From assembly GCA_964247135.1 (NCBI GenBank), contig CAXTTL010000052.1, forward strand, positions 1 through 23,278: DNA of 23,278 nucleotides, in the 5' to 3' direction. Below the pieces are notes generated by a model. The model saw only the letters and a program-made list of their open reading frames with translations. It ran no database searches and was not told where the DNA came from. Positions 20 to 23,278 of this stretch are shown piece by piece. Each line of letters starts with the position of its first letter. The stretch's first letter is position 1. The position numbers were made by a program, and so were the translations under genes. Source of the DNA: an uncultured Deinococcales bacterium (GTDB taxonomy: Bacteria; Deinococcota; Deinococci; Deinococcales; JAAFIG01).

Positions 20-1351
20 TTAAAAACCTTGAGGCGCTTTGTAACCAAACACGTCCAACGCCTTCTCGAGCATCAGATCGTGCCCCGATTTCATCAGTTC
101 CTCGAGTTCACCTTTGACCTCGTAATTGGGGGTAATAAAATCTGGCAATGGCGTGCCGTTCGCATGAACCGTGCGAATGTGCGTGATTTCAATCGCGCCC
201 TTGTCGATCAAATCACTGGGAAACGTTCCAGTGTTGGCAATGCCGTAAGTCTTTTCGCCGATCACCACGCCGCGCTTGGCGTACTGCACCGCATCCGCCG
301 CGACTTCCGCGCCCGATGCACTTTCAGCGTTCACCAGCACCGCAATTTGACCACGGAATTTCACAGGTTTATTGATTTTCAGCGCCAAGTACGATTCGGG
401 GTCGCTCGAGTCAAGCCCAAACAACAAACCCGCACGGTAAGAAAATTCCAGGCGCTCATAACGCGTGTTGTACGCCAAGGTCACATCCGGCACAAAGGCG
501 CTGACCCCTGCCACGGTTTCGGTCACCAAACCACCAGGATTGTCACGCAGGTCAACAATCACCGTTTGAATGTTGTAAGAGATGGCTTGAGCAAACAAAT
601 CATGCAATTTTTGCGCTGTGCCGCGCGTGTTGAACGACGGCAGGTCGAGTACCGCCACGCCCGCAGGTAAATTTGGCACCCGAACCCAGTATGGCAATTC
701 GCCCGCCGAAAAATTCTTGCCCTGCATCGACAGCTCGAGCGGTTTGCCCGCCCGCAAAATGGAGAGCGCAAACGGTTTCCCACTGCGCACAAAACCCGTC
801 AGAAACGCCCGACTGGCGGTTTCTTGTTTGATAAATTCGGCACTTTTGGGATCAAGTTTTTCATCGACGCTCGGAAAGGGTTGCTTGTCGATGGCGGTCA
901 AACGATCACCGCGCAACAAACCAGCCTCGAACGCCGGACCGCCGCTGACGACTTTTTCGATCACATAATCGCTCGAGCCGGCGATACGGTTGTACTGAAT
1001 GCCGATTCTTAAGGTGCTCGAGACTTGCCCCGACTGCTCTTGCTGGGTTTGCTGGTACTCTTCGGGCGTGAGGTAATACGTGTGACCGTCGCCAAGTTCG
1101 TCAATCATCTGATTGATGATTTCCCTGGCGACCGCAAAATCGCAAGTGTCCTTTTTATCGGCGCAAGCTTTCTCGAGCAAGCCCTCGTACTTTTTGATGT
1201 GCGCCGCCAAATCCACTTTGGAAAAGCCGTTGTAATTGATTTGCAAATAAATTTTCACCTGATGAAACAAATCCGTTGCTGGACTGGCAAAAGCCGTACT
1301 ACCAAACAACACCGCAAACGCCACCAACAACCATTTTGCTTTCATTTTCAT
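20..1351 (-). CDS. S41 family (tail-specific/tricorn-like) serine peptidase with signal peptide and PDZ domain
   Basis: Signal peptide ending AFA-SPA; PDZ-like GGPAFEAGLLRGDRL; DLRDNPGG; catalytic Ser motif SASGAE; His in LGDGHT; GEKTYG. Confidence 0.9.
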   Translation of the reverse strand: MKMKAKWLLVAFAVLFGSTAFASPATDLFHQVKIYLQINYNGFSKVDLAAHIKKYEGLLEKACADKKDTCDFAVAREIINQMIDELGDGHTYYLTPEEYQQTQQEQSGQVSSTLRIGIQYNRIAGSSDYVIEKVVSGGPAFEAGLLRGDRLTAIDKQPFPSVDEKLDPKSAEFIKQETASRAFLTGFVRSGKPFALSILRAGKPLELSMQGKNFSAGELPYWVRVPNLPAGVAVLDLPSFNTRGTAQKLHDLFAQAISYNIQTVIVDLRDNPGGLVTETVAGVSAFVPDVTLAYNTRYERLEFSYRAGLLFGLDSSDPESYLALKINKPVKFRGQIAVLVNAESASGAEVAADAVQYAKRGVVIGEKTYGIANTGTFPSDLIDKGAIEITHIRTVHANGTPLPDFITPNYEVKGELEELMKSGHDLMLEKALDVFGYKAPQGF

Positions 1352-1465
1352 GAAAGCAGTTTACAACCAAAACCAAAAAAACAATGCCCAAATCATGACC
1401 AAAAAACAACCGTTAAAACTCGAGCAGTAATAGCCAGAAAACCAGATTTCTGGTAAACTGCAATC

Positions 1466-1720
1466 ATGACCAGCCCAAGCAAACAAAAAGTCACCATCAA
1501 CCTGCCAAACGACGTGGTTCGCGCCTACCGCCTTGCCGCTGTACGCCAAGGCGTTCCAGATCAAACCATCATCGAACAAGCCGTGCGGCAATACTTGGGC
1601 TTAAACGACCTCGAGCGTTTACAAAATGCGTTCGCGCACCTGGCGTTAACCGAAACCGATGCCGACCAACTGGCAGTTGAAATGGTCAAAGAAACCAGAA
1701 AAGCCCGTCGTAAAGCATGA
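1466..1720 (+). CDS. Ribbon-helix-helix (CopG-like) antitoxin
   Basis: KVTINLPNDVVRAYRLAAVRQGVPDQTIIEQAVRQYL fits an RHH fold; ATGA overlap with the downstream PIN gene; TAAACT 6 nt before ATG. Confidence 0.75.
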   Translation: MTSPSKQKVTINLPNDVVRAYRLAAVRQGVPDQTIIEQAVRQYLGLNDLERLQNAFAHLALTETDADQLAVEMVKETRKARRKA

Positions 1721-2160
1721 AAGTTGTGCTTGACACCAGCGTTTACATTGCAGGTTTTCTGAATCCAAAAGGCGGCAGTGGTGAAACATTGCGCTTATGG
1801 CGCGAAGAAGCCTTGTTTGAAGTCATCGCCAGCGAACAACTTTTTGATGAGTTGCTCGAGACACTGCAAAAACCCAGATTGCAAGGGCAATTTCAGGAGA
1901 ACGATCCCGAACGCGCCCTGGAAAGTTTCAAACGAACCGCCATCCTGCTGCCAGACCCGCCCAACCCACCCCAAGCCACCCGTGACCAAGACGACGATTA
2001 CCTGGTCAGCTTAAGCATCTCGAGTGACGCCGATGCACTGGTGACACTGGACAATGATTTGCTGGTGTTGGAACGCCTTGAACGCCACGATGGAAAACGT
2101 ATTCCCATTGTGCGTCCTGGCGATTTGCTGGGCTGGTTGCGTGAGGCAGGTTTGAGGTAG
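1717..2160 (+). CDS. PIN-domain toxin (putative TA system toxin component, PIN family)
   Basis: MKVVLDTSV N-terminus; RDQDDDYLV...ADALVTLDNDLL acidic PIN motifs; coupled to an RHH gene. Confidence 0.9.
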   Translation: MKVVLDTSVYIAGFLNPKGGSGETLRLWREEALFEVIASEQLFDELLETLQKPRLQGQFQENDPERALESFKRTAILLPDPPNPPQATRDQDDDYLVSLSISSDADALVTLDNDLLVLERLERHDGKRIPIVRPGDLLGWLREAGLR

Positions 2161-2313
2161 TTTCTTCTCGAGTTTCAAGACCAGATTGCCCTTCCAAAAC
2201 CGTCACTCGAGCATTTTTTGACTCACCACGTTTGAACGCAACTGCTTCTTGCAAGCCTTGCAAAATACCATTCACCACTTCATCACGACTCGAGGTTTGG
2301 CTGATGATGCCAT
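2161..2313 (-). pseudogene. Probable remnant of the N-terminus of a HigA-like antitoxin
   Basis: Peptide VVNGILQGLQEAVAFKRGESKNARV resembles, from recall, the 'I..GL.EAIA..KG' leader of HTH antitoxins; no HTH follows, and the upstream ATG (2313) is out of frame. Confidence 0.35.
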
Positions 2314-2385
2314 TGTGCGGCGCGAGTCAAACGAAAAGAATGGCAACCCGAAAAAGGTTGCCATCAAAAACTCGAGCTTTAAAAA

Positions 2386-3870
2386 CTACTGCAAGTTCGC
2401 GTTGTTCTGTTGCACCATCTGAATATTACCCGAAACTTTTTGGAGCACCGAATCCATGAGGCTCGAGCCTGTGAAATCTGGCAGCGGCGCGAGGTCGTAA
2501 CTGCTGACGAGTGCGCTGGCTTTTGCCCCGAAATACTCGAGGGCTTTTTGCAAGAGTTGATCGACGCCAGTGTTGAACAAATTAAATTCGGCATTTGGTG
2601 TGACGATATCGGGTTTGACGCTCGAGGGCAGCGGTGTGCCGTCCGTCCAGAAGGCGCGAACGGTTGGGAAGGCTGCCGAACCACCGTTGATCAAACCAAA
2701 TCGGGCGGTGTTGGTATTGCCAATGCCCAGCGTTTCTTCGCCAATAATTGGACCACGCTTGACTTTTTGGATGCCGCTGGCAAAGTATTCGCAGGCGGAG
2801 GCGCATCCATTGTTGACCAACATGGCGATTGGTCCTTTGAACAGTGCAGGATTATCGAGTTTCTGACTGCCAAGTTCGACGCCTTGGAGATTGGACACCG
2901 AGTATGTGCCATTGGAATACCGTTCTTCAGTGGTGCGTTGCTCTGCGTTGTAACGTGGTACACGGCGGATCGGTGCAGGAGTTTCAACAAAAGCCCCAAC
3001 CGCTTTCAAGCTTTCGGCGCCCAAGCCACCGCCATTGTCGCGTTGTTCAATCACAATCGCTTTGACATTTTTAGCAATGGCTTCGTTGACCAACGCATGA
3101 ACTTTTGCAGCCTGCCCCTCGAGAAACCAAGTCCGAATGGTCAGAATGCCGATGCCGTCCGAACGTAGCGAGAGCGTCGGGAAATCCGCCGTTTTGATAA
3201 TCGCACCAGTGACCACAATATCGAGCTTTTGGCGCTCTGGACCGCGTACAATCTTCATGGTGACGGGTTGCAAGGCGCGAACGAGTTTGGTGAAAGCAGC
3301 CTGTTGATCGCTGGCGGCTTTGGCGTCGGTAGCACTGGCAAAAAGCACATCGTTAAAACCGACCCAACGATCCCCAATTTTTAGACCTGCCGCCTCGGCT
3401 GGCGAACCAGGCACAACATTGGCAATCAGTCGATCAAAAATTTGTTTGCTGGTCAAATTGCCCTGATCGTCACGTTCGCAAACCCCCGTCGGCGTATCGC
3501 AAAAGCCTCGAGAGGTAATGCCGATCCGTGGTACTGGAGAAGTTCCACCCCCACCGATGCTCGAGTTTTCCTCGGCGACGGCGGCGGCTGTCAAATAATA
3601 CGCGTGTGGGTCATTGAGGTCATCTTCCATTTGCGCGATGATCGGTTCAGCTTTTTCGTAAGCACAATTGTCTTTGTCGTCCGCGCAGGCTTTATCGAGC
3701 AAGGGCTGGTACTTTGCCGTGTGCTCTTTCATGTTCACAGGGTTTGGACCAAAGTATTGCGTCTCGAGGTAAAACGTGGCTTGGTCAAACAAATCTTGGG
3801 CTGGGCTGGCAAACGCCAAGCTCGAGCCTGCAAAAATTGCGGCAAGCACTAAAACAACACGCGATTTCAT
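2386..3870 (-). CDS. S41 family peptidase with signal peptide and PDZ domain
   Basis: AFA-SPAQDLFDQATFY; LNDPHAYY; PGSPAEAAGLKIGD; QRDNGGG; CASACE; GEETLG. Confidence 0.9.
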   Translation of the reverse strand: MKSRVVLVLAAIFAGSSLAFASPAQDLFDQATFYLETQYFGPNPVNMKEHTAKYQPLLDKACADDKDNCAYEKAEPIIAQMEDDLNDPHAYYLTAAAVAEENSSIGGGGTSPVPRIGITSRGFCDTPTGVCERDDQGNLTSKQIFDRLIANVVPGSPAEAAGLKIGDRWVGFNDVLFASATDAKAASDQQAAFTKLVRALQPVTMKIVRGPERQKLDIVVTGAIIKTADFPTLSLRSDGIGILTIRTWFLEGQAAKVHALVNEAIAKNVKAIVIEQRDNGGGLGAESLKAVGAFVETPAPIRRVPRYNAEQRTTEERYSNGTYSVSNLQGVELGSQKLDNPALFKGPIAMLVNNGCASACEYFASGIQKVKRGPIIGEETLGIGNTNTARFGLINGGSAAFPTVRAFWTDGTPLPSSVKPDIVTPNAEFNLFNTGVDQLLQKALEYFGAKASALVSSYDLAPLPDFTGSSLMDSVLQKVSGNIQMVQQNNANLQ

Positions 3871-5136
3871 TTATTTCACCCCCAAAATCAAATAGGCTTT
3901 CTCGAGCGCTGGGTCTTTACCCGCCGCCAAGGCACTCAGGTCTTCTGGGACGCTGACATCTGGCGTGACCGCCATTGGAAATGGTGTGCCGTTCAACGCC
4001 ACAATACGGTCGTTGGAAACGTTGATGAACAAGCCGTTTGCCAGTGCCGTACCGCCAACGTCAAAATCCAGGCTCGGCAGTCCGCCGCTAACGCCACCCG
4101 CCCCTGCGGTCAGGTCGCCCACGATTTGGGCACGTTTGGCATTTTGCAGCAGTTGCGCGACAATTTCACCGCCGTGAACGGTGTATTTGTTGACCAACAC
4201 GACCAGATTGCCCTTCCAAAGTTGGGGCTTGTCGAGTTGTCCGACTGGGCTTTTGTTGCCCGCCTCGTCCTCGCGCACGATTTGGTTGGCTTGCACGGTA
4301 AAGGTCCTGGAGCTTTTGAAAAAACGGTTCTGGTATTTCAGACCGACGCTTTCCATGAACGCCCTGGCGGTCAGCATGGCTTCGCTGTCAAAACCCGTTC
4401 CAGAATCGCGCAGGTCGAGCACCACATTTTTTAAGCTGTCGTTGTTGGCTTTGCGAACCAGGGTGTGGACGCGGCTGGCAACATTGTCGCCCCAGTAAAA
4501 ATCTTGAACGTGAATGACCATCGTGTTCTTGGGGGCATTTGGCACGGCAAATGGTCTGGACACCTCTTCGACCACGGCTGGCGTAACATCAATTTTCTGG
4601 GCTGCGCCCGCACGATCAATCTCGAGCGTGATCGGTTTGGCATCGAGTTCCGCAGCCGTTAATGCCTCGAGCGTGGCGGGTTTGCCATTGATGGTTTTGA
4701 TGACATCGCCGCGTTGCACGCCAGCCAGGCTGGCAGGTTCGCCGTTGTTGGCTCGAGCCACCAGCAGTCCGCCCGTGTACGCCCTGGTTTGTACGCCGAT
4801 GACGGGATTGGGGCTGCCTTTGCCCGAGGTGAAACGGTCAAAGTCGCTGTTGATGAGTTCGACAAAAGGGTCTTTGAGGTCGGCAATAATTTTTTGAATC
4901 ACTGGCACGGCTTTTTCATAACCACATTTGGCGTCGGTGCCGCAAGCCTGATCGAGTTGCGGTTGGTAGGCTTTGCGCAAATCGCGGAAGTTGGCGACCT
5001 TGGCGGGACCCGAGTAATAAAACCCGACGTAAAACGTTGCCTGATCGAACAAATCCTGGGCTGGTGATGCAAACGCAGCCCCAAAAACGCTGGTGGTTGC
5101 CGTCGCAAGTGCCAAAAGAACAGCTTTCTTTCGCAT
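3871..5136 (-). CDS. S41 peptidase homolog, probably catalytically inactive
   Basis: Start reassigned to MRKKAVLL (ATG 5136, AGGAG SD); same AFASPAQDLFDQATFY N-terminus and PDZ domain, but DPH is DPF, ASxxE is VHGGE and DNPGG is DSGTG. Confidence 0.85.
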   Translation of the reverse strand: MRKKAVLLALATATTSVFGAAFASPAQDLFDQATFYVGFYYSGPAKVANFRDLRKAYQPQLDQACGTDAKCGYEKAVPVIQKIIADLKDPFVELINSDFDRFTSGKGSPNPVIGVQTRAYTGGLLVARANNGEPASLAGVQRGDVIKTINGKPATLEALTAAELDAKPITLEIDRAGAAQKIDVTPAVVEEVSRPFAVPNAPKNTMVIHVQDFYWGDNVASRVHTLVRKANNDSLKNVVLDLRDSGTGFDSEAMLTARAFMESVGLKYQNRFFKSSRTFTVQANQIVREDEAGNKSPVGQLDKPQLWKGNLVVLVNKYTVHGGEIVAQLLQNAKRAQIVGDLTAGAGGVSGGLPSLDFDVGGTALANGLFINVSNDRIVALNGTPFPMAVTPDVSVPEDLSALAAGKDPALEKAYLILGVK

Positions 5137-5273
5137 GTTGACTCCTTTTAAAATGTACACATTCAGGATAACTCGAGTTTTGGTTTTCAGAAAGTGATTT
5201 TGGTTTAGGTATCTCGAGCAGAACACTCATCCTCATGACGATTTTGTGCCAGAATACTGAGCGATGCCTGAGT

Positions 5274-5837: not shown

Positions 5838-5875
5838 AACTCGAGATTATCACGTGTTGGCTCGAGGGTTGCCCC

Positions 5876-5943: not shown

Positions 5944-5945
5944 GT

Positions 5946-7525: not shown

Positions 7526-7607
7526 GTTAACGCATTTAGATTACCGCATTCGGCTCGAGCAGATGAAGAGGCAAACTCAGGTTCAAGCCTCGAGAAGCCT
7601 TGAATCG

Positions 7608-8098: not shown

Positions 8099-8126
8099 GG
8101 GAAAATGCTAGCACAACTTTGTGAAC

Positions 8127-9488: not shown

Positions 9489-10421
9489 TTATCGAACGGT
9501 GACATTGCCATAACCAAAATCAGTCTCGAGGTCATTGGTGCGGCTGCCAATGGCTTCGTTCCAAATTGGCGAAAGTCGGTCTATTTTGTTCTCGAGCAAT
9601 GCCCAATCTTCGCGGGCTTTGAGGATGCAGCCACGGGTTTGCTCGAGGGTGTGCTTGTCGAGCGCCTCGCGGTGCAAGCTCATGAGTGCCAAGCCCCAGT
9701 CGAGGGTTTCGGCAACGCCTGGAACTTTGTGAAACGGCATGGCGCGAAGTTCAACCATGACTTGGGCAATCTGAGTGGCGAGACGCTCGGAGATTCCTGG
9801 AAGTCGGGCATGAAGAATCTTTTTTTCTTGCTCGAGGTTGGGGTAACTTTGCCACAGGTACAAGCAGCGCCGCCGCAGCGCGTCCGAGAGTTCGCGGCTG
9901 CGGTTGGAGGTCAGACTCACAAACGGACGGTGCTTGGCTTTGATCGTGCCGAGTTCTGGGATGGTGATTTGAAACTCAGCCAGAAGCTCGAGCAAGAAGG
10001 CTTCAAAGGCTTCATCGGCGCGGTCAACCTCGTCGATCAAGAGCACACACGGTTTGTCCTGCGTGATCGCCTCGAGCAGCGGACGTTTTAACAAAAATTG
10101 ATCGGAGAAAATTTGAGATTCTCGAGCTTCCAGCGTACTCGAATCATTTTCAGTCAACCGAATTCGCAGCATTTGCTTGGGGTAATTCCACTCGTACAAC
10201 GCACTGCTCGAGTCCAGACCCTCGTAGCACTGCAAGCGAATCAATTTCGTCTCGAGCGCATCGGCGAGCACCTTGGCGCTTTCGGTTTTGCCGACCCCCG
10301 CAGGACCTTCGATCAGAAGCGGTTTTTGAATCGCCATTACAAGTTGCAACGCCGTGGCGAACTCGTCCGATGTCACATAACCCAATGCTTGAAAACGATC
10401 CTTTAAACTTGCAAAATCCAT
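9489..10421 (-). CDS. coxD: MoxR-family AAA+ ATPase CoxD
   Basis: Walker A EGPAGVGKT, LIRLQCYEGLD, Walker B LLIDEVDRAD, SDALRRRC; start reassigned to MDFASL (TGATG overlap with the upstream gene). Confidence 0.92.
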   Translation of the reverse strand: MDFASLKDRFQALGYVTSDEFATALQLVMAIQKPLLIEGPAGVGKTESAKVLADALETKLIRLQCYEGLDSSSALYEWNYPKQMLRIRLTENDSSTLEARESQIFSDQFLLKRPLLEAITQDKPCVLLIDEVDRADEAFEAFLLELLAEFQITIPELGTIKAKHRPFVSLTSNRSRELSDALRRRCLYLWQSYPNLEQEKKILHARLPGISERLATQIAQVMVELRAMPFHKVPGVAETLDWGLALMSLHREALDKHTLEQTRGCILKAREDWALLENKIDRLSPIWNEAIGSRTNDLETDFGYGNVTVR

Positions 10422-11608
10422 CACGAAGACACCACGTTTTGTGGCTCGAGGTACGCGCTGGGGTTTTTCAAAAAACGCCGTTTGCAATTCGGGCAAGAAA
10501 AATAGTACGTCACACCCTCGAGTTCGGTGAAATGCACGGCGCTCGCAATCTCGATTTCTTCGGCATCCACGGGGGACAGGGCGAAACCTGGACGCTCGAG
10601 GGACAAACCGAAGACGGTTGAACTTTTGTTTTGAAGCTCGAGATTTTCAGGTGGATTTTGTGTGGCGGCAATGTCGCGTAGGGGCGCATGGCTATGTGCC
10701 CCTACAGGGTCAACGGCGTTTGTTTCGCTCGAGACATTTTGGTTTTTCGCACGGTGGGCATCCGCATTGTACCCGCTCGAGTTCGTGAACATCGGCGTGT
10801 CCGAATCCCTGGCGGCAATGATTTCGGCAAGGATTGAAACGGCAACCTCGGACGGTGTTTTGGCGTTGATGTCCAAACCAATCGGGTTGCGAATTTTTGC
10901 GGTCAGGCTGGCATCCATCCCTTGAAGCTCGAGCAATTCGCGCACTGTCACGGCGCGTTTTCGGCTGGCGAGCAAACCGACAAAACCGACGTTGAAATTG
11001 AGCAGCAACTCGAGCGCGGGTTCGTCGTAATGTCCTTGCGAGGCGACGACCGCCGCCATCGAACCCAGGGTGTTTTCGGGTAATGACTCGAGATAAGCGT
11101 TCAAATCTTGGAGCGCCACGAGTTTGCAGGGTGCAGCCTCGAGATCGCGCAATTCCTCGCGGGTGACGACACGCACCACCTCATACTCGAGCATTCCACT
11201 TAAGGCGGCGACGGCTTGCGCGACGGGCGTGAAACCCGCCACCAGCAGCACTCGAGCGCGGGTGTGCGGCTCGAGGTAGACATCGGCTGCACCTTCGGAG
11301 GCGCAAGTCATGGGCACAACAATGCTTTCGGCATCGGCGGCGTGTTGCAAAGTCTCGAGGGTGGCATCAGGGCGAATCAAAACCAGCCTGGGTTTGCCCA
11401 AACGCAACGCCTCGAGCGCCTGTTTGCGCACGATTTCCCGAGAGCATGAACCACCGACAAAACCTTCCATGCGACCATCGGCAAAAATGATGGCTCGGTC
11501 GCCAATGTGCGAGCTGACCGGAGCGCGTCTCGAGACGACGGTGGCGGTCGTGAACGATTCGCCGTCACGTTTGAGTTGAGAAACCTGTTCAAAAAATTGC
11601 GAATTCAT
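10421..11608 (-). CDS. coxF: XdhC/CoxF-family Mo-enzyme maturation factor with C-terminal YHS domain
   Basis: GFVGGSCS, MTCASEG, VASQGHYDE, VGLLASRKR, PIGLDINAKTPSEVAVSILAEI; C-terminal EGVTYYFSCPNCKRRFLKNP. Confidence 0.85.
   Translation of the reverse strand: MNSQFFEQVSQLKRDGESFTTATVVSRRAPVSSHIGDRAIIFADGRMEGFVGGSCSREIVRKQALEALRLGKPRLVLIRPDATLETLQHAADAESIVVPMTCASEGAADVYLEPHTRARVLLVAGFTPVAQAVAALSGMLEYEVVRVVTREELRDLEAAPCKLVALQDLNAYLESLPENTLGSMAAVVASQGHYDEPALELLLNFNVGFVGLLASRKRAVTVRELLELQGMDASLTAKIRNPIGLDINAKTPSEVAVSILAEIIAARDSDTPMFTNSSGYNADAHRAKNQNVSSETNAVDPVGAHSHAPLRDIAATQNPPENLELQNKSSTVFGLSLERPGFALSPVDAEEIEIASAVHFTELEGVTYYFSCPNCKRRFLKNPSAYLEPQNVVSS
10678..10705. repeat. GTAG-type REP-like palindrome inside a coding sequence
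   Basis: GTAGGGGCGCAT-GGCT-ATGTGCCCCTAC, 12-bp arms with 1 mismatch. Confidence 0.75.
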
Positions 11609-12833: not shown

Positions 12834-12915
12834 GGTTTCCTCGAGCCTTGCATCACTTAAATTCTAAAAAATCTCGAGCAAGCAGCACTCGAGATTCCTG
12901 GCATGGCTCGAGTTG

Positions 12916-12940
12916 GTAGGGTGCGCCATGCGCACCCTAC
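12916..12940. repeat. GTAG-type REP-like perfect palindrome downstream of coxG
   Basis: GTAGGGTGCGC-CAT-GCGCACCCTAC, perfect 11-bp arms. Confidence 0.8.
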
Positions 12941-12954
12941 GGGTTTCTCGAGGT

Positions 12955-13404: not shown

Positions 13405-13483
13405 TGTTGCTCCTGTGTTTCTAGATTTTGGATTTTTGAATCTCGAGTCTTTGATACACCAAAACCAACAATTGCTTGGTCTG

Positions 13484-13642
13484 CCCTCATCCCCAACCCT
13501 TCTCCCGCATGACGGGAGAAGGGAGTTTTAGTCCTACTTTGTGTCGCTCGAGGTGTCCTGTCCTTCTCCCTGCGGGAGAAGCGACCATGCCCGCCAGGTG
13601 CGTTTTATGGTCAAGAAGGTGGCGCGTAGCGCCGAATGAGGG
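13484..13642. repeat. Hairpin repeat copy 3 (13484-13552) plus an inverted related unit (13563-13642)
   Basis: ccctcatccccaacccttctcccgc...cgggagaagggag...gctcgag, then cttctccc-tgc-gggagaag...gtggcgcgtagcgccgaatgaggg. Confidence 0.8.
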
Positions 13643-13702
13643 CTTCGGGTTCAATCAATTGATTCCATTGGTCTACGAATGCGTCTTCTCGAGGCTCGAG
13701 AT

Positions 13703-16051
13703 TTAATCTGCGGCGTGGGCTTCGGCTGCACGAATCGCTGCCCACACTTTTTCGCGGGTGAGTGGCATGTCAATGTGGCGCACGCCAAGCGGTGAGAGCG
13801 CGTCAATCACGGCGTTCACGAACGCGGCTGGACTGCCGACGTTTGGGCTTTCACCCACAGATTTCGCGCCGATGGGATGGTGCGGGCTTGGGGTGACGGT
13901 GTGACCCGTTTCCCAGTGCGGACTCTCGAGGCTGGTTGGCACGAGATAATCGGTGAAGTTGGTGGCGAGGTTGTTGCCTGCCTCATCGTAAGCAATTTCT
14001 TGCATGAAAGCAATCGCAAAGCCTTCGGTTAAACCACCGTGAACTTGTCCTTCGACGATCATTGGGTTGATGATCGTGCCAGCGTCGTCGATGGCGAGGA
14101 AGCGACGGACTTTGGTCTCGCCCGTGTCACGGTCAACGTCCACCACGGCAACATATGTGCCGTGCGGGAAGACCATGTTCGGTGGGTCGTAGTACAGCGT
14201 TGCCTCGAGTCCTGGCTCAATATCCCCAGGGTTGGTGTAGGCGGCGAAAGCAATTTCTTTCATGGTGATGCTTTTGCCTGGTGCGCCCATGACTTGGAAT
14301 TTGTAATCTTTCCACTCGAGGTCGCGTTCGTCCACCTCGAGCACGTGCGCGGCGAACTTGCGGGCTTTCTCACGGATTTTGCGGGCTGCCAGTGCCAGAG
14401 CGCCACCTGCAACGGGGGTGCTGCGGCTGGCATACGTGCCCAAGCCATAAGGCGCAGTATCGGTGTCGCCCTCCTCAACCAGGAAGTTTTGCGGGTCAAG
14501 CCCGAGTTCTTCGGCAACAATTTGCGCCCAAGTGGTTTCGTGACCCTGCCCTTGGGATTTTGTGCCTGTGCGAATGATGCCCGCGCCCGACGGGTGAATA
14601 CGGATTTCTGCGCCGTCAAACATCTTGATGCCGAGGATGTCAAAGTGCTTGCTTGGACCCGCGCCCGTGACTTCGGTGAAGGTGCTGATGCCAATGCCCA
14701 TCAGTTCGCCCTTGGCGCGTTTTTCGACTTGTTCTGCCAAAAGTTCTTTATAACCAATTCGCTCGAGCGCCACGTCCATCGTGTGCTCGTAATCGCCGCT
14801 GTCATAAGTAAAATTGAGCGGTGATTTGTAGGGGAACTGCTCTTTTTTAATAAAGTTCATGCGGCGCAATTCGGTGGGGTCCATCTTCAGTTCGTCGGCA
14901 ACAATGTCCATCGCGCGTTCGATCAGGTAGCTGGCTTCGGTCACGCGGAAGCTGCAACGGTACGCCACGCCACCAGGTTGCTTGTTGGTGAAGTACGCGT
15001 CCAAATTGGCATACGCCACAGGAAAGTCGTAAGACCCAGAAACAATGCCGAACATGCCAGCAGGGTACTTGCTCGGGTCGGCGGCGGCATCGAACGCACC
15101 GTGATCGGCAACCGTATTCACTTTAAGCGCGGTCAGTTTGCCGTCTTTGCTCGCGCCAATTTCGATGTCCATGTGGTAATCGCGGGCGAAGCTCGAGGTC
15201 AGGTTTTCGGTGCGGGTCTCAATCCATTTGACGGGGCGCTTCAAGACCAACGCGCCAGCAATCGCGCAAACATAACCTGGGTAAACTGGCACTTTGTTGC
15301 CAAAACCGCCGCCCAAATCTGGCGAAATAACATGAATTTTGTCTTCTGGAATGCCGAGCACCAAGAACAACGCCGTGCGGTAGACGTGCGGCGCTTGCGA
15401 GGTCACGTAAAATTGAAGGCGTCCCATCGTGTCAAACTCGGCGATGCAGCCGCAAGGCTCGAGCGGCGCAGCATGAACGCGTGGGAAAACCACGTGTTGT
15501 TTGACCACGTGATCGCTTGCTGCAAGCGCGGCATCGGTGGCGCTCGAGTCGCCCACGTTCCAGTTGTAAATGTGGTTGGTTTTGCTCTCGCGGTCGGCGC
15601 GCAAAATCACGTCGTCTTTCATGGCTTTGTACGGGTCGGCAACCACCTCGAGCGGTTCGTAATCGACCTCGACCAGTTCTGCCATGTCGTAGGCGGCTTC
15701 TCGGGTTTCGGCGTAACAGGCGGCAACCTCTTGGTATTGGTACAAGACCTTGCCTTCTGCCAGCACCATTTGCTTGTCCAGACCGTGAAAGGTCGGCAAC
15801 CAGTTGACCTTGTAGGCGTTCAGTTCCGTGCTGGTGACGACAGCCACGGCGCCCTCGACTTTCATTGCGGCGCTCGAGTCGATACTCTTGATGTTGGCGT
15901 GCGGGTACGGGCTGTGCACCAGCGCCATGTACAACTGCCCCTTGAGGTTGATGTCGTCAATATAATTGCCTTTGCCTTGCAAGAAACGCGGGTCTTCTTT
16001 GCGTTTCATGCTTTTGCCCATCGCAAATTTTTCGGTTGTTGGTGCGGTCAT
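13703..16051 (-). CDS. coxL: Aerobic carbon monoxide dehydrogenase large subunit, form I
   Basis: Active-site motif GGVAYRCSFRVTEA (AYxCSFR); GGGFGNK, QGQGHET, GLGTYASRS, EGQVHGG; AGGAGG SD. Confidence 0.95.
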   Translation of the reverse strand: MTAPTTEKFAMGKSMKRKEDPRFLQGKGNYIDDINLKGQLYMALVHSPYPHANIKSIDSSAAMKVEGAVAVVTSTELNAYKVNWLPTFHGLDKQMVLAEGKVLYQYQEVAACYAETREAAYDMAELVEVDYEPLEVVADPYKAMKDDVILRADRESKTNHIYNWNVGDSSATDAALAASDHVVKQHVVFPRVHAAPLEPCGCIAEFDTMGRLQFYVTSQAPHVYRTALFLVLGIPEDKIHVISPDLGGGFGNKVPVYPGYVCAIAGALVLKRPVKWIETRTENLTSSFARDYHMDIEIGASKDGKLTALKVNTVADHGAFDAAADPSKYPAGMFGIVSGSYDFPVAYANLDAYFTNKQPGGVAYRCSFRVTEASYLIERAMDIVADELKMDPTELRRMNFIKKEQFPYKSPLNFTYDSGDYEHTMDVALERIGYKELLAEQVEKRAKGELMGIGISTFTEVTGAGPSKHFDILGIKMFDGAEIRIHPSGAGIIRTGTKSQGQGHETTWAQIVAEELGLDPQNFLVEEGDTDTAPYGLGTYASRSTPVAGGALALAARKIREKARKFAAHVLEVDERDLEWKDYKFQVMGAPGKSITMKEIAFAAYTNPGDIEPGLEATLYYDPPNMVFPHGTYVAVVDVDRDTGETKVRRFLAIDDAGTIINPMIVEGQVHGGLTEGFAIAFMQEIAYDEAGNNLATNFTDYLVPTSLESPHWETGHTVTPSPHHPIGAKSVGESPNVGSPAAFVNAVIDALSPLGVRHIDMPLTREKVWAAIRAAEAHAAD

Positions 16052-16111
16052 TAGCGGTGTCCTCCTAAAGTGATGATGCGGCTCGAGGGTTGAATAACGA
16101 ATCTCGAGTGT

Positions 16112-16612
16112 TTAATCGTCTGCGGCGGCTGGGATGGCTTGGCTCATCACGCCTGCGGCTTGTTGGATGGATTTGACGATGTTGTTGTAGCCCGTGCAAC
16201 GGCAGAGGTTGCCGCTCAAACCCTCGCGGATTTCGTGTTCGGTTGGGTTGGGGTTGTGCTTTAAGAGGGCAACGCTGGTCATCAGCATCCCTGGGGTACA
16301 GTAACCGCATTGCAAACCGTGCTGATCCCAGAAGGCTTGTTGCAGTGGGTGCAATGCCCCACCTGGCGCGAGCGATTCGACGGTGGTGACTTCGTGACCG
16401 TGCGCCATCGCGGCGAACATGGTGCAGGATTTCACGGGTTTATCGCCGTCCAACAAGACTGTACAAACGCCGCAACTCGAGGAGTCACAACCGACGTGCG
16501 TACCGGTCAAACCCGCTTGCTCACGGATAAAATGCACCAGCAAGGTTCGAGATTCGACGGTGGCGGTGACTTGCTTGCCGTTGATTTTAATGCTGACCGG
16601 AATCTCGTTCAT
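16112..16612 (-). CDS. coxS: CO dehydrogenase small [2Fe-2S] subunit
   Basis: [34 protein letters not shown]. Confidence 0.95.
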
Positions 16613-17484
16613 GCGTTCACCCCAAGACGTTGTAAAGCCTCACGAATGCCACGACCCACCAGCACTCGGGTCATGTCTTTCTTGTATTCGGCGCTGCCGC
16701 GTTGATCGGCGTTTGGACTGGCAATTTTCGGCGCTTCGGCGGCGGCGGCTTTGATCAACTCGAGGGTCGGTTTTTGCCCAACCAACATGGCTTCGGCTGC
16801 CGCGACGCGCATGGCAATTGGTCCTGCGGCGGTGATCGCAATGCCCGCTTGGCGAATCGTGCCATCAGCATTCAGGCTGATTTGCACGGCTGCGGCGCAA
16901 GTCGCGTAATCGCCAACTTTACGTTCAATCTTTTGGTAGCTGCCTTGGGTGTGCGCGTCGGGAATTGGGATTTTCAACTCGAGCGCCATCTCCCCTTCTT
17001 CAACGGCGGTCGTGTACGAATCGACCAAGAATTCATCAATGGGGACTTCACGCAAACCATTCTTGCCGCGCACGACCACCACGGCTCGAGAAGCGAGGCT
17101 GGTTGCCGTCCAGTCTCCCGCTGGATCGTTGTGACAGACGCTGCCAACGACCGTGCCCATGTGGCGAACAATCGGGTCGGCAACGACTTTGGAAACCGCC
17201 GTAATCAAGCTGTAACGCTCGAGAATCCAGGGTGCAAACTCGAGTGCGGCATCGCGGGTGGTTGCGCCAATGCGCAAGAAACCGTTCTCCTCTTTGAGAT
17301 ACTCGAGGTCTTTGATCGGGTTGATGTCCACCAGAACCGCTGGTCGGGCGAGGCGATAACGCATCGCGGGAATCAGGCTTTGCCCACCTGCCAGAACGCG
17401 TCCGTCAAAACCATGCTGTTGCAGGGCGGCAAACGCTTCGTCGGTGGTGTGGGCGCGAACGTACTCGAAACTGGCTGGGAACAT
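16609..17484 (-). CDS. coxM: CO dehydrogenase medium FAD subunit
   Basis: Start reassigned to MFPASFEY (AGGAG SD); [33 protein letters not shown]. Confidence 0.93.
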
Positions 17485-17630
17485 TAACCACGCTCCTGAA
17501 AATAATTTCGTAACCTCCCAGATTTGGGCGGGGAAGGCTCGAGTTTGGTAGAACAGTTTTGATACTAACGCAATTGAAACAAGAAAAGCAATGCGGTTTG
17601 TATCGTGAATTACAGCATAGAGTAACCCTG

Positions 17631-17644
17631 TCATGTCCACATGA
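17631..17644. promoter_or_regulatory. Candidate operator in the coxM/mocA divergent promoter region
   Basis: Perfect palindrome TCATGT-CC-ACATGA. Confidence 0.3.
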
Positions 17645-17693
17645 AGTCGCTGTGAAATGCTCGGTTCGCAAGCTTCAAGGTTAAACTCATGGC

Positions 17694-18308: not shown

Positions 18309-18318
18309 GAGTGGATTT

Positions 18319-18543: not shown

Positions 18544-18588
18544 GAATTTTCCTTCTGGCTCGAGAATTTTTAAAGCTCGAGACACCAT

Positions 18589-19014: not shown

Positions 19015-19078
19015 AAGAACCTTCTTTGTGGCTCGAGTGTGGTTTTGGAAGACTCGAGAGAATTGCTGTTAACCTCAA

Positions 19079-19984
19079 TTAGGTTGGAAAACGCTCACGG
19101 AGGTCTTGAATGCAACGAACAATTAGCTTCTCCTTGATTCTGGCTTCTTCTTCTGTCATGCGATCATGTTCGGGAGTACCTGGTTCGGCATAACCTACTG
19201 GACTGTTCGTAGTCTCAATGAAACCAAAATAGTTAAAAAACTCGATGAGTTCTAAAAGTTCTGTCGGGCGAGTGGTATCCCAGTCTGGTGATAATGTTGG
19301 AAGCACTTTCGAGAATACGTGGTTTAGGATTGCTTTTTCAATTGTTCTGCCACTCTCGTAAAGATAGCCTATTGTCTCACGAACAAAGTCAACAGGTGGG
19401 TTAATAACTTGCCCTGATTTGACAATGTAGTACTGAAAACGTGGAACATCAACATGTCGAATCACTGCCGCGTGATGTGCAACGGTATGACGAATTAGTG
19501 TAAGGTCACGCAAACGAGCATATTCAGAAACTGGTATTGGCTCGAGATTGATGGATTTGCGGAACAGTTTATTTATATCATCAGGATCAATTAAACCTGT
19601 TAGATCAGTGTCAAGTCGTTTAAAGGCGTTATCAGGTGTCCTATATATCGGTTGTGATCGAAGTTTTACAAGTTCAGGAAAATGAGCATTGATGTATGTG
19701 TTATCCGCCATACGAGCACCAAAATCACGCACGAAGTCTTCAAGAGCGACAACTCCAAGAAAGATAGCCAGTGCTGCCAGTGGCTTCTGAAAGTTAACTG
19801 CGTCATCTAAGGCTTCGCGTCTTTGTTTGGTGTCAAGGTCGCCGTCCCCAAAGTCTGGAAGTTGTAATAACTCTTTAGCTTGTGATTGCCGATAGGCAAA
19901 CAACCCACTGGATGAGTTAGTGCGAATGCCAAAAGTATATTCAATGATAGACGCATCGGGCAGAATCACGGTAGGCGTAAACAT
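19079..19984 (-). CDS. Hypothetical protein with HEPN-like RxxxxH motif, probably horizontally acquired
   Basis: ALEDFVRD helix and LIRHTVAHH; AT-richer than its neighbours; AAGGAG SD. Confidence 0.7.
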   Translation of the reverse strand: MFTPTVILPDASIIEYTFGIRTNSSSGLFAYRQSQAKELLQLPDFGDGDLDTKQRREALDDAVNFQKPLAALAIFLGVVALEDFVRDFGARMADNTYINAHFPELVKLRSQPIYRTPDNAFKRLDTDLTGLIDPDDINKLFRKSINLEPIPVSEYARLRDLTLIRHTVAHHAAVIRHVDVPRFQYYIVKSGQVINPPVDFVRETIGYLYESGRTIEKAILNHVFSKVLPTLSPDWDTTRPTELLELIEFFNYFGFIETTNSPVGYAEPGTPEHDRMTEEEARIKEKLIVRCIQDLRERFPT

Positions 19985-20030
19985 GTGTCTCCTTGAAGGC
20001 TTAACAAGAGCTATCCACTAAGCAAAACGT

Positions 20031-20076
20031 AACTCCCTCGAGAAGTGTAAAAAAACTCCCTCGAGAAGTGTAAAAA
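20031..20076. repeat. Perfect 23-bp tandem duplication
   Basis: (AACTCCCTCGAGAAGTGTAAAAA)x2. Confidence 0.9.
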
Positions 20077-20176
20077 ACCACAAGCTGTTTTTGACTCTAA
20101 GAATTCAAGCATTTCATTTCCTCTCGAGTATTTTGACTCCACCACAATACCCATTTCTCGAGTTTCTCACCCCAAC

Positions 20177-20217
20177 AAAAAATTCCAGCTCAAGGCTTCA
20201 AACTCGAGCTGGAATTT
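20177..20217 (-). terminator. Hairpin with T-tract on the minus strand (putative intrinsic terminator)
   Basis: AAATTCCAGCTC ... GAGCTGGAATTT inverted repeat, with an A-run on the + strand. Confidence 0.45.
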
Positions 20218-20270
20218 GCGCTTCAAACCTCTACAGTTGCAATTCTTGGGTTTTTTCGTAAGAATCTAAT

Positions 20271-21761
20271 ATGCCCTTTCAAAGATCAAGCGGTATTTTG
20301 CTGCATCCCACCTCTTTTCCTGGACGGTTTGGAATCGGTTCACTCGGTAATGAAGCTTACAGTTGGCTGGACTGGCTGGCAAACGCTGGACAGAAACTCT
20401 GGCAGATTTTACCGCTTGGACACACAGGTTACGGCGACAGCCCCTACCAAAGCTTCGGGGCTTTTGCGGGCAACCCACTGTTAATCTCGCTCGAGAAACT
20501 GCTGGAACAAAACCTGCTCGAAGCATCAAGCCTCGAGAATCCACCGAACTTTAGCCACGATTTGGTCGATTACGGCTGGATTTACATCTGGAAGTGGCAA
20601 AAACTCCGCGAGGCGCACAAACGCTTCAAAACCCACGCGAGCGCCAAGCAACTCGAAGATTACCAACAATTCCGAGCCGACAATGCCTCCTGGCTCGAGG
20701 ATTATGCGCTGTTTATGGCGTGCAAAGACGCGCACGGCGGCAAACCTTGGACCCAGTGGCAGATTAAACTCGTGCACCGCGACCCCGCAACGCTCGAGAA
20801 AAACCGCACTGAGCTGGCGGATAGTTTGGATTTGTACGCTTTCACGCAATGGGCTTTTTTCAGTCAATGGTCGGCGGTTCGCGCTTACGCCCATTCCAAA
20901 AACATTCAAATCGTCGGGGATATCCCGATTTTTGTTGCGCACGACTCCTCGGACGTTTGGGCAAACCAGCATCTGTTCATGCTCGAGCCTGACGGTTCGC
21001 CGGAGGTGGTGGCGGGCGTGCCACCAGATTATTTTTCAGCCACCGGGCAGTTGTGGGGCAACCCGCATTACCGCTGGGATGTCATGGCAAAAGACGGTTT
21101 TGCCTGGTGGTTGCAGCGATTCTCTGAAACCTTCAAGCAGGTCGATATTGTGCGGGTCGATCATTTCAGAGGCTTTGACGCCTACTGGGAAGTGCCTGGA
21201 CAAGCCGAGAACGCCATTGTCGGACGTTGGGTCAAAGCCCCAGGTCATGCGTTGTTTGAAGCCGTCCGAGCCAAGTTTGGCAACCTGGCGATCATTGCCG
21301 AAGACTTGGGCGTGATTACCCCGACTGTCGAAAAACTGCGCGACGATTTTAATTTGCCAGGCATGAAAATCTTGCAATTTGCGTTTTACAACAACAACGA
21401 CGACCCGTTCTTGCCGCACAATTACCAGCACAACTGCGTGGTTTACACCGGCACGCACGACAACGACACCACGCTGGGCTGGTGGGAATCCGAACCTGAA
21501 CTGACCAAAAACAAAGTCCGCGAGTACCTGCAAAGCGACGGCTCGAGTATCGTCTGGGATTTGATCATTGCCGCTTGGAAGTCAAACGCCGACATGGCAC
21601 TGACCACCTTGCAAGACTTGCTCGAGTTGCCCACCATCGCCCGCATGAACCTGCCAGGCAGCTTGGGGGGGCGCAACTGGGGCTGGCGTTACTCGAGCGC
21701 GGTGCTAAGTGATGCCTTAGCGCAGCGTTTGAGGGCATTGACCGAGGCTTGCAACCGTTGA
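20271..21761 (+). CDS. malQ: 4-alpha-glucanotransferase (amylomaltase, GH77)
   Basis: SGILLHPTS, GDIPIFV, GVPPDYFSATGQLWGNP, RVDHFRG, IIAEDLG, YTGTHDNDT. Confidence 0.97.
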   Translation: MPFQRSSGILLHPTSFPGRFGIGSLGNEAYSWLDWLANAGQKLWQILPLGHTGYGDSPYQSFGAFAGNPLLISLEKLLEQNLLEASSLENPPNFSHDLVDYGWIYIWKWQKLREAHKRFKTHASAKQLEDYQQFRADNASWLEDYALFMACKDAHGGKPWTQWQIKLVHRDPATLEKNRTELADSLDLYAFTQWAFFSQWSAVRAYAHSKNIQIVGDIPIFVAHDSSDVWANQHLFMLEPDGSPEVVAGVPPDYFSATGQLWGNPHYRWDVMAKDGFAWWLQRFSETFKQVDIVRVDHFRGFDAYWEVPGQAENAIVGRWVKAPGHALFEAVRAKFGNLAIIAEDLGVITPTVEKLRDDFNLPGMKILQFAFYNNNDDPFLPHNYQHNCVVYTGTHDNDTTLGWWESEPELTKNKVREYLQSDGSSIVWDLIIAAWKSNADMALTTLQDLLELPTIARMNLPGSLGGRNWGWRYSSAVLSDALAQRLRALTEACNR

Positions 21762-21771
21762 AGCTCGAGTT

Positions 21772-22317
21772 TCAGGCTTTAATTGCAGCCTCAAGCTTTT
21801 CAAACTCGAGGTGGTCGTAAACAAATTCGGCATATTGCGCAATCTGAATGCTCGAGTCTGGGGCAATTAAAAAATCGGCGGGCATTCGGTAAAAGTTGCT
21901 GCCCTCTTCTGGGGTTAAGGCAAAACCGCTCTCGGCAGCTTGCGTGATCATGGCTGGCGTTTCGGGTTTTGCCATTGTCGCGTTGACTTTTTCTTCGCTG
22001 CTTTCGACTCCGTACAGTGCATAGAGTTTTGCTTCTGGGTCAGAAATGATTGGGAACGGAGCATCTTGTTTGCCCACATATTGATTGATGCTCGAGCTTG
22101 GTGATTCAAAGACCGTGATGATCTCGAGGTGCTGGGCTTGAAGGCTTGGGAATTTTAGGATCAGTTGATGCACCCGCAAGTTGCACATGGCACATGCGCC
22201 GTTTCGCAAAAATGAAAGCAATAGCCATTTTCCAGCATAATCTTGAAGTTTGATCGGATTGCCCAAGTGATCTGAGACATGAAAATCTGGGGCAGGTATG
22301 CCTGGTTGGATACGCAT
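21772..22317 (-). CDS. Peroxiredoxin-like AhpC/TSA family protein
   Basis: APDF..D..G, FLRNGACAMC (CxxC), FPIISDP, MPADFLI; AGGAGG SD. Confidence 0.85.
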   Translation of the reverse strand: MRIQPGIPAPDFHVSDHLGNPIKLQDYAGKWLLLSFLRNGACAMCNLRVHQLILKFPSLQAQHLEIITVFESPSSSINQYVGKQDAPFPIISDPEAKLYALYGVESSEEKVNATMAKPETPAMITQAAESGFALTPEEGSNFYRMPADFLIAPDSSIQIAQYAEFVYDHLEFEKLEAAIKA

Positions 22318-22379
22318 GATGAACCCTCCTAAAATTGAGTGGGTCGTCTGATCAGAGACTCGAGAATACTAAGCCCACC

Positions 22380-22405
22380 TGACCAATTTAGTCAAGTAAG
22401 CTTAC
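22380..22405. promoter_or_regulatory. Candidate MarR operators
   Basis: TGACCAA-T-TTAGTCA (22380-22394) and GTAAGCTTAC (22396-22405) palindromes between divergent genes, just upstream of the TAGAAT -10. Confidence 0.45.
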
Positions 22406-22425
22406 CATCTGTTAGAATCATCATC

Positions 22426-22899
22426 ATGGCAAAACTCAAACGCAACATCCCAATCGCGCAACTCGAGGAATTGCGCCAGCAACCTCAACCCTTTGGACGC
22501 TTATTGATTCGTGCCCACCGCGCATTTTTTGCAGCAACAAACGCCAAATTAAGCGCTTTGGGGTATTCCGATTTTGGCAACGCCAAAGGCACGCTGCTGG
22601 CACAACTTGACGCAGACGGCACACGTTTGACCACGCTGGCAGAACGGTTGGGCATCACCAAGCAATCGGTCAGCCAACTCGTGACCGACCTCGAGCAAAA
22701 CGGGTATGTGCAGCGCCTGCCCGACCCCAGCGACAACCGCGCCAGTTTGGTGCGCTTCACCGAACGCGGTTGGCAATTTTGTCAAGATGCCAACCGCGTC
22801 AGATTAGAACTCGAGGCTGAATATGAACACGCGCTCGGCAAGGATGCCATGCAAAACTTGCGTGGCTTGCTCGAGAAATTTCTCGAGCAAGCCAATTAA
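22426..22899 (+). CDS. MarR family transcriptional regulator
   Basis: Start reassigned to MAKLKR; LAERLGITKQSVSQLVTDLEQNGYVQRLPDPSDNRA winged HTH. Confidence 0.92.
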   Translation: MAKLKRNIPIAQLEELRQQPQPFGRLLIRAHRAFFAATNAKLSALGYSDFGNAKGTLLAQLDADGTRLTTLAERLGITKQSVSQLVTDLEQNGYVQRLPDPSDNRASLVRFTERGWQFCQDANRVRLELEAEYEHALGKDAMQNLRGLLEKFLEQAN

Positions 22900-22902
22900 A
22901 AC

Positions 22903-23278
22903 TTATTTCTGCCCATCCAAATCGAGGTTTAACTCGAGCACGTTCACCCGCGCCTGTCCCAAAGCCCCGAAGGTCGCAGCTTGGGTATGGCGTGCGACGG
23001 CATCCCGCACCGCCGCCTCGCTGATGCCTCGAGCGCGTGCCACCCGAGCCAACTGAATTTCTGCCGCCTTTGGGCTGATGTCGGGGTCGAGTCCAGAGCC
23101 GCTGGTCGTGATGAGGTCGGCTGGAATGTCGTTGGGGGTCACGCCGTCTCGGGCGGCAATGTCTTTGGCGCTCGTGGCAATGCGTTCGATCAAGGCTGGA
23201 TTGCTGGGCGCGGCGTTGGAACCGCTGGCGGAGGTTGGGTCAGAACCGTTTCCGGCGCTGGAGGGGGGGGGGATAAAA
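22903..23278 (-). CDS. kdpC: K+-transporting ATPase subunit C (3' part; runs off the window)
   Basis: SGSNAAPSNP, DLITTSGSGLDPDISP, QLARVARARG, VNVLELNLDLD. Confidence 0.93.
   Translation of the reverse strand, partial: FIPPPSSAGNGSDPTSASGSNAAPSNPALIERIATSAKDIAARDGVTPNDIPADLITTSGSGLDPDISPKAAEIQLARVARARGISEAAVRDAVARHTQAATFGALGQARVNVLELNLDLDGQK

Follow-up and report, generated by a model that had tools for sequence, protein, structure and literature searches.

The DNA analysed here, called the window below, comprises positions 1 to 23,278 of contig CAXTTL010000052.1 (contig C52 in our numbering) from the assembly GCA_964247135.1 of an uncultured Deinococcales bacterium. Its gene content is ordinary, with three S41 peptidase paralogues, a MadB/MadC-like pair of an ATPase and a VWA protein, an XdhC-like maturation factor, an aerobic CO dehydrogenase (cox) operon and malQ, and none of the Rfam families matches the window. 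The subject of this work is the palindromic hexamer CTCGAG, which is found by pattern search 178 times between positions 65 and 23033, corresponding to one site per 131 bp; this is exactly the number that the first-pass annotation, made by a model from the letters of the window, had arrived at by an approximate manual count. In 100 shuffles of the window that preserve the dinucleotides, the mean is 4.2 sites (standard deviation 1.9, largest value 9), and none of the 100 reaches 178.

The sites occur in all three codon phases, in genes of both strands and in the spacers between them. Three dense intergenic clusters had been pointed out from the letters, and these are indeed present with five, four and five sites, respectively. 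The first (positions 12840, 12873, 12888, 12907 and 12947, spanning 12840 to 12952) occupies a spacer of 121 bp, and its last two sites bracket a G+C-rich hairpin. The second (2167, 2206, 2289 and 2371, spanning 2167 to 2376) lies between an open reading frame (ORF) on the plus strand (1717 to 2160) and an S41 peptidase gene on the minus strand (2386 to 3870). The third (20037, 20060, 20123, 20157 and 20203, spanning 20037 to 20208) lies in the spacer upstream of malQ. A 23-bp direct repeat is also present at this location (20030 to 20075), each copy of which includes one CTCGAG, these being the first two sites of the cluster. Two further sites, 7 bp apart (13688 to 13700), directly follow the stop codon of the gene of the CO dehydrogenase large subunit, and 20 sites fall in the cox operon (13703 to 17640, minus strand), which was traced across 17 relatives.

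The enrichment is a property of the whole genome, in agreement with what had been proposed from the window. The assembly (5.09 Mb in 386 contigs, 52.7% G+C, 84% complete by marker genes; 16S rRNA and rpoB were not found in it) contains 33,925 CTCGAG sites, one per 150 bp, which is 24.8 times the zero-order expectation; under dinucleotide and trinucleotide models, the excess is 35-fold and 14-fold, respectively. No other of the 4096 hexamers is as frequent. Each of the 297 contigs of at least 5 kb is enriched, with 2.6 to 10.5 sites/kb, and windows of 5 kb contain 8 to 64 sites (mean 33.3, standard deviation 7.9), these counts being over-dispersed. The over-represented word is the hexamer proper, with a weak preference in its flanks (G at position -1 and C at position +1 in 39% of the sites). 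The ratio of observed to expected counts under the maximal-order Markov model is only 1.24, and it was set aside as uninformative because the sub-words from which the expectation is calculated are themselves dominated by CTCGAG. The assignment of the organism as Deinococcota-like, which had been made from the letters, fits as well, as the MalQ encoded in the window is 95 to 96% identical to that of Deinococcales metagenome-assembled genomes (MAGs).

CTC and GAG are ordinary codons, and 61% of the coding sites are in the phase in which CTCGAG is read as CTC-GAG, as would be seen if codon or dipeptide usage were the source of the excess. In the window, crude ORF calls place 95 sites in the phase CTC-GAG, 15 in nCT-CGA-Gnn, 33 in nnC-TCG-AGn and 35 in intergenic DNA, with 38 sites in genes of the plus strand and 105 in genes of the minus strand, so that the earlier claim of sites in every phase, on both gene strands and between genes is borne out. 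The coding sequences of the window have 143 sites, whereas 200 synonymous shuffles average 21.3 and never exceed 33. A small number of ORFs, such as those around 9489 to 10496, are called wrongly; the genome-wide figures did not change when the overlap rule was relaxed. In the genome, the phase CTC-GAG has 17,559 sites and the other two phases have 4,681 and 6,711. The excess over synonymous shuffles within genes is 7.0-fold overall (5.5-, 12.3- and 11.3-fold by phase), and the excess over codon permutation is 17-fold, which supports the statement of the first-pass annotation that codon or dipeptide bias cannot explain the enrichment. The spacers are denser in sites (7.6 to 7.8/kb with two gene-calling settings) than the genes are (6.5/kb). 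Outside Leu-Glu pairs, CTC accounts for only 15% of the Leu codons and GAG for 33% of the Glu codons, and the mirror word GAGCTC, which uses the same codons, has no copy in the genome. The excess therefore survives control for codon use, is present intergenically and is not confined to one contig, these being the points on which its interpretation had been made to depend.

The reverse relation is also observed, as the DNA word has changed protein sequences. Among the 22,878 Leu-Glu pairs of the genome, 17,559 (77%) are written as CTCGAG, whereas 4.9% is expected from the codon use elsewhere. The Leu-Glu dipeptide itself is over-represented 2.41-fold and Ser-Ser 1.63-fold, compared with 1.02-fold for Glu-Leu, and from these values it follows that the word has altered the choice of amino acids.

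The individual sites are conserved. From the congener G005, 350 kb were taken, of which 250.6 kb could be aligned to this genome at 85% identity, and in this alignment 1414 of the 1773 CTCGAG sites are kept at the same position, compared with 44.9% of all hexamers. Among the 721 hexamers with at least 100 occurrences, CTCGAG ranks first in conservation. This is true for the coding sites (1265 of 1583 kept, background 45.0%) as well as for the intergenic sites (148 of 189, background 44.4%). The identity per base is 0.93 to 0.95 at each of the six bases and 0.84 at positions -1 and +1; clearly, the constraint is exactly six bases wide. The single differences from the congener are 34, 34, 27, 31, 32 and 39 for the six successive positions and are mostly transitions. 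When the 20 sites of the cox operon are followed through the relatives, 79 to 100% are kept within the genus and 43 to 83% in the other four genera, the values for the background hexamers being 51 to 56% and 21 to 33%, respectively. The site at 14204 is kept in all 14 genomes that cover it and the site at 15192 in all 16. The cox operon of each relative also has CTCGAG sites of its own, which points to turnover.

The comparison with related genomes, which had been suggested as a check, shows that the enrichment is common to independently assembled relatives. Each of the 18 further genomes in the GTDB family of this organism, which spans five genera, has 4.3 to 6.8 CTCGAG sites/kb (calculated as site counts over rounded genome sizes). 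In the 150 genomes of the rest of the phylum, the density ranges from 0.01 to 3.4 sites/kb. One genus (g7) avoids the word (0.01 to 0.2/kb), in another (g9) it is about as frequent as the mirror control GAGCTC, and three genera (g13 to g15) together with parts of family f2 have intermediate enrichment (1.5 to 3.4/kb). Eleven loci of independently deposited Deinococcales MAGs have 5.6 sites/kb, compared with 0.12/kb in 64 loci from other phyla that have this gene neighbourhood in common with them. The agreement in density between separately deposited MAGs excludes an artefact of assembly or library.

Along the genome, the distance between neighbouring sites has a mean of 148 bp and a coefficient of variation of 0.96, and the largest gap in 5.09 Mb is 2644 bp. 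Distances of up to 10 bp are depleted to 0.12 of the geometric expectation. Pairs 6 bp apart are absent (219 expected); such a pair of CTCGAG sites would create GAGCTC, the word that is absent from the genome. Pairs at 8 bp number 11 (216 expected), and those at 7 and 9 bp number 87 and 115, so that the dip at 8 bp is deeper than at the distances on either side of it. In the spacers, depletion is limited to distances below about 15 bp, with ratios to random of 0.30 for 6 to 9 bp and 0.77 for 10 to 14 bp. Apart from the 3-base coding period and this short-range exclusion, no helical or other short-range periodicity was found. The density is nearly flat across gene starts and gene ends, with a peak of 15.8/kb in the first 10 bases after stop codons. 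A role of CTCGAG at the level of genes was considered and rejected on this profile, the post-stop peak being modest.

The abundance of CTCGAG stands out against a general avoidance of palindromes in this genome. No other palindrome is in strong excess, and of the 64 hexamer palindromes about 35 fall short of 0.2 of their expected count. The genome has no copy of GAGCTC, one of GGGCCC, three of CGGCCG, four of AGGCCT, five of CGTACG, seven of GGATCC and 11 of CCGCGG. The tetramer GGCC has 380 copies, 0.02 of expectation, and both GGCC and GAGCTC are absent from the window; GAGCCC/GGGCTC has 10 copies in the genome when both strands are counted. In 5-kb windows with few CTCGAG sites, the avoided palindromes are more frequent (6.8 compared with 1.8 per window; Spearman coefficient -0.26, p = 2e-14), and these regions look like more recently acquired DNA that does not yet have the resident signature. 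A gene of a 258-residue PF01555 methyltransferase (G000:C189:4856-5653) has no CTCGAG in about 780 bp, where about five are expected, and it may be a recent arrival.

With respect to the avoided words, a D12 adenine methyltransferase of about 293 residues always adjoins a protein of 309 to 389 residues (G000:C320:1064-2994, locus L089:323-2244; orthologues L404 to L409). The partner protein matches the SacI restriction endonuclease family in all seven members (best E value 3e-7) and has a weak match to EcoT38I (PDB entry: 7e8r), and the pair lies beside mqnE in seven genomes of three genera. EcoT38I is an enzyme that cuts GRGCYC. As judged from these family matches, the SacI/EcoT38I-like cassette is the probable reason why GAGCTC is missing altogether and why GGGCCC and GAGCCC are nearly so. 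Among the matches, no intact copy of the cassette is seen in the family genomes that are rich in GAGCTC (G008 with 568 copies, G010 with 161 and G015 with 114).

The word is also present in the clustered regularly interspaced short palindromic repeats (CRISPR) and in the spacers of these arrays. The one array detected in this genome, with 17 repeats (G000:C221:6962-8137; also G000:C9:61-168), has a 37-base repeat that contains CTCGAG, and variants of this repeat, all of which keep CTCGAG, are found in 7 of the 19 family genomes. The 90 unique spacers from five family genomes (3127 nucleotides) contain 22 CTCGAG sites, at varied positions within the spacers, and no GAGCTC. This corresponds to 7.0 sites/kb, the density of the host, whereas base composition would give 0.73 sites (P = 4e-25). 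The DNA that CRISPR adaptation has sampled is thus as rich in CTCGAG as the chromosome. One spacer of this genome matches a peroxiredoxin gene at 35 of 35 aligned bases (of 37; G000:C25:927-961). For two G002 spacers, near-matches over 24 to 26 bases, with one or two mismatches, were found in this genome, in a rhamnosidase gene and in a PAS/GAF sensor gene. These matches suggest that at least part of the sampled DNA is chromosomal DNA of kin; the remaining spacers may come from lineage-adapted mobile DNA. An origin of the spacers in lytic phages was considered and set aside, the one near-perfect protospacer being in the peroxiredoxin gene, amid housekeeping genes and not in a prophage. A scan of IMG/VR for three close sites gave at least 120 stretches, mostly from phage contigs of 63 to 70% G+C, at which codon usage alone raises the number of CTCGAG sites, and for this reason the scan is not informative for the family; no spacer matched the 120 of these stretches that were compared.

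Enzymes that could read or write the site were searched for in the 19 family genomes, which are 57 to 94% complete, using six Pfam families of DNA methyltransferases (PF00145, PF01555, PF02384, PF07669, PF12950 and PF02086) and taking at most 30 loci per family search into the clustering. PF00145 (C5) is found in 18 of the 19 genomes (none in G008), PF01555 in 17 (none in the single-contig G011), PF02384 in all 19 (mostly of HsdM size), PF07669 in 18, TaqI_C in 6 and D12 in 18. The set in G011 comprises one C5 enzyme, two D12 enzymes, two HsdM proteins and two further proteins of 693 and 1111 residues. This genome has at least 12 methyltransferase-like genes, among which are two of the C5 type, five PF01555 genes, an HsdM-like gene coding for 799 residues, one coding for 1500 residues, two MmeI-like genes and one D12 gene. 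The D12 ortholog groups cover 7 of the 19 genomes each, and the best-conserved D12 enzyme was rejected as the writer of CTCGAG, since it belongs to the SacI/EcoT38I-like cassette instead. The orphan CTCGAG or TCGA methyltransferase for which a search had been suggested was not found as a family-wide gene, the specificity of such enzymes not being readable from sequence. Vsr (PF03852) and RecC have no match in this genome, and only one fusion protein of a UvrD helicase and a PD-(D/E)XK nuclease is encoded, with no partner gene beside it. The words that differ from CTCGAG by one base and would derive from T:G mismatches are not depleted (CTTGAG 1.16-fold and TTCGAG 1.33- to 1.74-fold of expectation). 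ComEC is found in 18 of the 19 family genomes and DprA in this genome.

Two further features of the window are described for completeness. The S41 (C-terminal processing) peptidase paralogues are on the same strand (20 to 1351, 2386 to 3870 and 3871 to 5226), and each is below the curated cut-offs of the Ctp families. The stretch from 13455 to 13650 contains a repeat (about 170 bp) that is dispersed in dozens of copies over this genome and its congeners; it includes two hairpins whose stem is of the type cttctccc...gggagaag.

The closest known system is HIP1 (GCGATCGC), the highly iterated palindrome of cyanobacteria, as had been proposed from the window; this parallel is upheld by the over-representation, the independence of reading frame and the conservation. 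In common with HIP1 and the alternate cyanobacterial HIPs (Elhai 2015, PMC4390886; Xu, Lawrence and Durand 2018, PMC5861425), CTCGAG is a G+C-rich palindrome that is enriched tens-fold. It is likewise found in all frames of genes and between genes, is conserved above background and is common to a whole lineage, and it occurs in a genome that otherwise avoids palindromes, and inside a CRISPR repeat. HIP1 is over-represented 15- to 300-fold. About one HIP site per 1000 nucleotides is given for the cyanobacteria (PMC4390886), HIP1 sites are conserved within and between ORFs (PMC5861425) and a location inside a CRISPR repeat is reported (PMC6604393); another paper proposes HIP1 as an uptake sequence (PMC13756078), and a recent abstract ties it to methylation-dependent transformation efficiency and compares it with Chi. 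CTCGAG differs from HIP1 in being a hexamer and not an octamer, in occurring in another phylum with one site per 150 bp and in its large effect at the protein level. Moreover, no cognate methyltransferase was found for it in the survey described above, and its one-base deviations are not concentrated at the outer bases. No published report of the hyper-abundance of CTCGAG was found in a literature search that covered papers without their supplements, and, with the same coverage, the text of two HIP papers (PMC4390886 and PMC13756078) does not mention the word. CTCGAG is a denser and shorter counterpart of HIP1 in another phylum, and an independent case.

Other systems agree less well. With the DNA uptake sequence (DUS) of Neisseria and the uptake signal sequence (USS) of the Pasteurellaceae (Findlay and Redfield 2009, PMC2817400), CTCGAG shares that it is a short, family-wide word with thousands of copies that co-evolves with the proteome. 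Also as for these, it is rarer in foreign-looking DNA, and its carriers encode competence genes. Uptake sequences are oriented words of 9 to 12 bases that occur about once per kb, whereas CTCGAG is palindromic, has six bases and is about 10 times denser. With a type II restriction-modification target, it shares the identical palindrome, which is the classic type II site of XhoI, PaeR7I and BsuMI, as well as the sharp end of the constraint at six bases. Genomes that encode or encounter such systems avoid the site, as this genome does for at least 30 other palindromes, whereas CTCGAG is enriched 25-fold, and no XhoI-family nuclease was found in the 19 family genomes, in a search that had no positive control. 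The enrichment is also unlike that of the Dcm/Vsr type, given that Vsr has no match in the genome and the T:G-derived words are not depleted. Chi, which is read by RecBCD or AddAB, is likewise an over-represented short word, by which self DNA is recognised and protected from degradation. It is an asymmetric sequence whose orientation follows replication, whereas CTCGAG is palindromic and occurs in a genome in which RecC was not found and the UvrD/PD-(D/E)XK fusion stands alone.

It is possible, and this is the reading tentatively preferred here, although it is held with less than even confidence, that CTCGAG is a HIP-type word which, as an exact site of 6 bp, marks DNA as resident or kin when DNA is exchanged or processed. 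The sharp footprint of six bases, the equal protection of these bases, the conservation in spacers and the cost at the protein level suggest that something in the cells would read the exact 6-bp duplex palindrome in the manner of a symmetric, type-II-like DNA-recognition protein. The same four observations argue for sites that would be kept one by one, through selection or a selection-like transmission advantage, and not by a lesion-specific repair bias. The tag might be used in uptake, in recombination or in sparing DNA from degradation, and, as has recently been suggested for HIP1, it may act through methylation of CTCGAG. The family-wide occurrence, the weaker signal in foreign-looking DNA, the host-like density in CRISPR spacers, including those that match kin genes, and the analogy with HIP1 favour a tag. 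The competence genes ComEC and DprA are a further point on this side. In its strongest form, CTCGAG would be an ultra-dense palindromic tag of kin DNA, an analogue of uptake sequences and of Chi, which defines a family-wide gene-exchange community of uncultured Deinococcales; this form of the proposal is rather doubtful.

Several observations weigh against a tag. Among the clustered loci, the largest of the methyltransferase ortholog groups covers 9 of the 19 genomes, so that none is common to the family, and in the survey of the family genomes a protein that reads CTCGAG was not identified. The model of the XhoI-family nuclease (PF04555), which is matched in 0 of the 19 family genomes, is matched in 0 of 14 control genomes as well, so that this negative has no positive control. 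ComEC and DprA are widespread, with hits in 10 (ComEC) and 11 (DprA) of 14 controls, and indicate a capacity only. Random DNA of this composition has CTCGAG every 3.7 kb or so, which makes the hexamer a poor discriminator, and a tag function would therefore need a read-out of density. The density is about 10 times that of known uptake sequences, which are not palindromes, and the role of HIP1 itself is unsettled. The result on the CRISPR spacers does not separate lineage-adapted mobile DNA from kin chromosomes, and metagenome binning based on tetranucleotides may have dropped contigs without CTCGAG, inflating the apparent uniformity.

Among the alternatives, maintenance coupled to methylation, following Elhai's model for HIP1, survives best, although it is unlikely. 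A methyltransferase would mark CTCGAG or TCGA, and methyl-directed mismatch or short-patch repair would create and keep the sites, for strand discrimination or for the control of replication. That the word is a classic type II target and that the genome encodes at least 12 methyltransferase-like genes are both in agreement with such maintenance. It is also in agreement with two published sources, one in which the alternate HIPs of cyanobacteria each have a cognate methyltransferase (PMC4390886) and one in which methylated CTCGAG and TCGA are reported, as a 'Group 2', from hot-spring metagenome bins, the phylum of which is not stated (bioRxiv 10.64898/2026.06.24.734251). However, no methyltransferase group among the clustered loci is family-wide, with PF01555 missing from G011, C5 enzymes missing from G008 and TaqI_C limited to 6 of 19 genomes. 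Vsr was not found in this genome, the C-to-T variants CTTGAG and TTCGAG are not depleted and the six positions differ from the congener about equally often. Furthermore, for strand discrimination a density of about one site per kb would do, compared with the one per 150 bp that is observed.

An abundant dimeric architectural (nucleoid) protein that binds CTCGAG and organises or protects the DNA is a less likely explanation still. Such a protein would agree with the uniform density over genes, spacers and gene ends, with the absence of any gap between sites above 2644 bp and with the footprint-like way in which neighbouring sites avoid each other below about 10 to 15 bp, even in spacers. HIP1 is distributed periodically along the chromosome, at 10 to 90 kb, and its periodicity has been taken as a sign of nucleoid structure (PMC5861425). 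However, the nucleoid proteins that are known read degenerate or structural signals and not an exact hexamer with sharp edges. In the spacers, the spacing is near random beyond 15 bp, the counts in 5-kb windows are over-dispersed and there is no candidate protein.

It is quite improbable that the sites are functionless, being a neutral by-product of biased mutation or repair. The lower density in foreign-looking windows is what amelioration would give, and the word is present everywhere, even in a CRISPR repeat. However, the retention of sites at the same position is far above background in genes, in spacers and across genera, the six bases are equally protected against transitions and transversions, which fits no single-lesion repair bias, and the process would have to override the choice of amino acids, as seen from the 2.41-fold excess of Leu-Glu. 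Codon or dipeptide usage and an assembly or library artefact are refuted as the cause by the shuffles, the spacer density, the missing mirror word and the separately deposited MAGs, and retain practically no probability.

To our knowledge, HIP1 has stayed unexplained for about thirty years, and work on such iterated palindromes has been confined to cyanobacteria. The present case shows that they are not a cyanobacterial oddity, as a second one exists in a phylum whose members are noted for repairing DNA and for natural competence, and it provides a comparative handle, since an explanation of either CTCGAG or HIP1 should cover both. In practical terms, the word distorts k-mer binning, codon models and gene prediction for these MAGs. 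The milder enrichment (2 to 3.4 sites/kb) in putative cultured genera of the Thermaceae type suggests that the question can be approached at the bench. If CTCGAG is indeed a tag of kin DNA, then DNA rich in this word would be preferentially taken up, recombined or spared in these bacteria, which would drive the word into every gene, every spacer and every resident mobile element, and the CRISPR spacers with counterparts in ordinary kin genes would be a trace of that DNA traffic.

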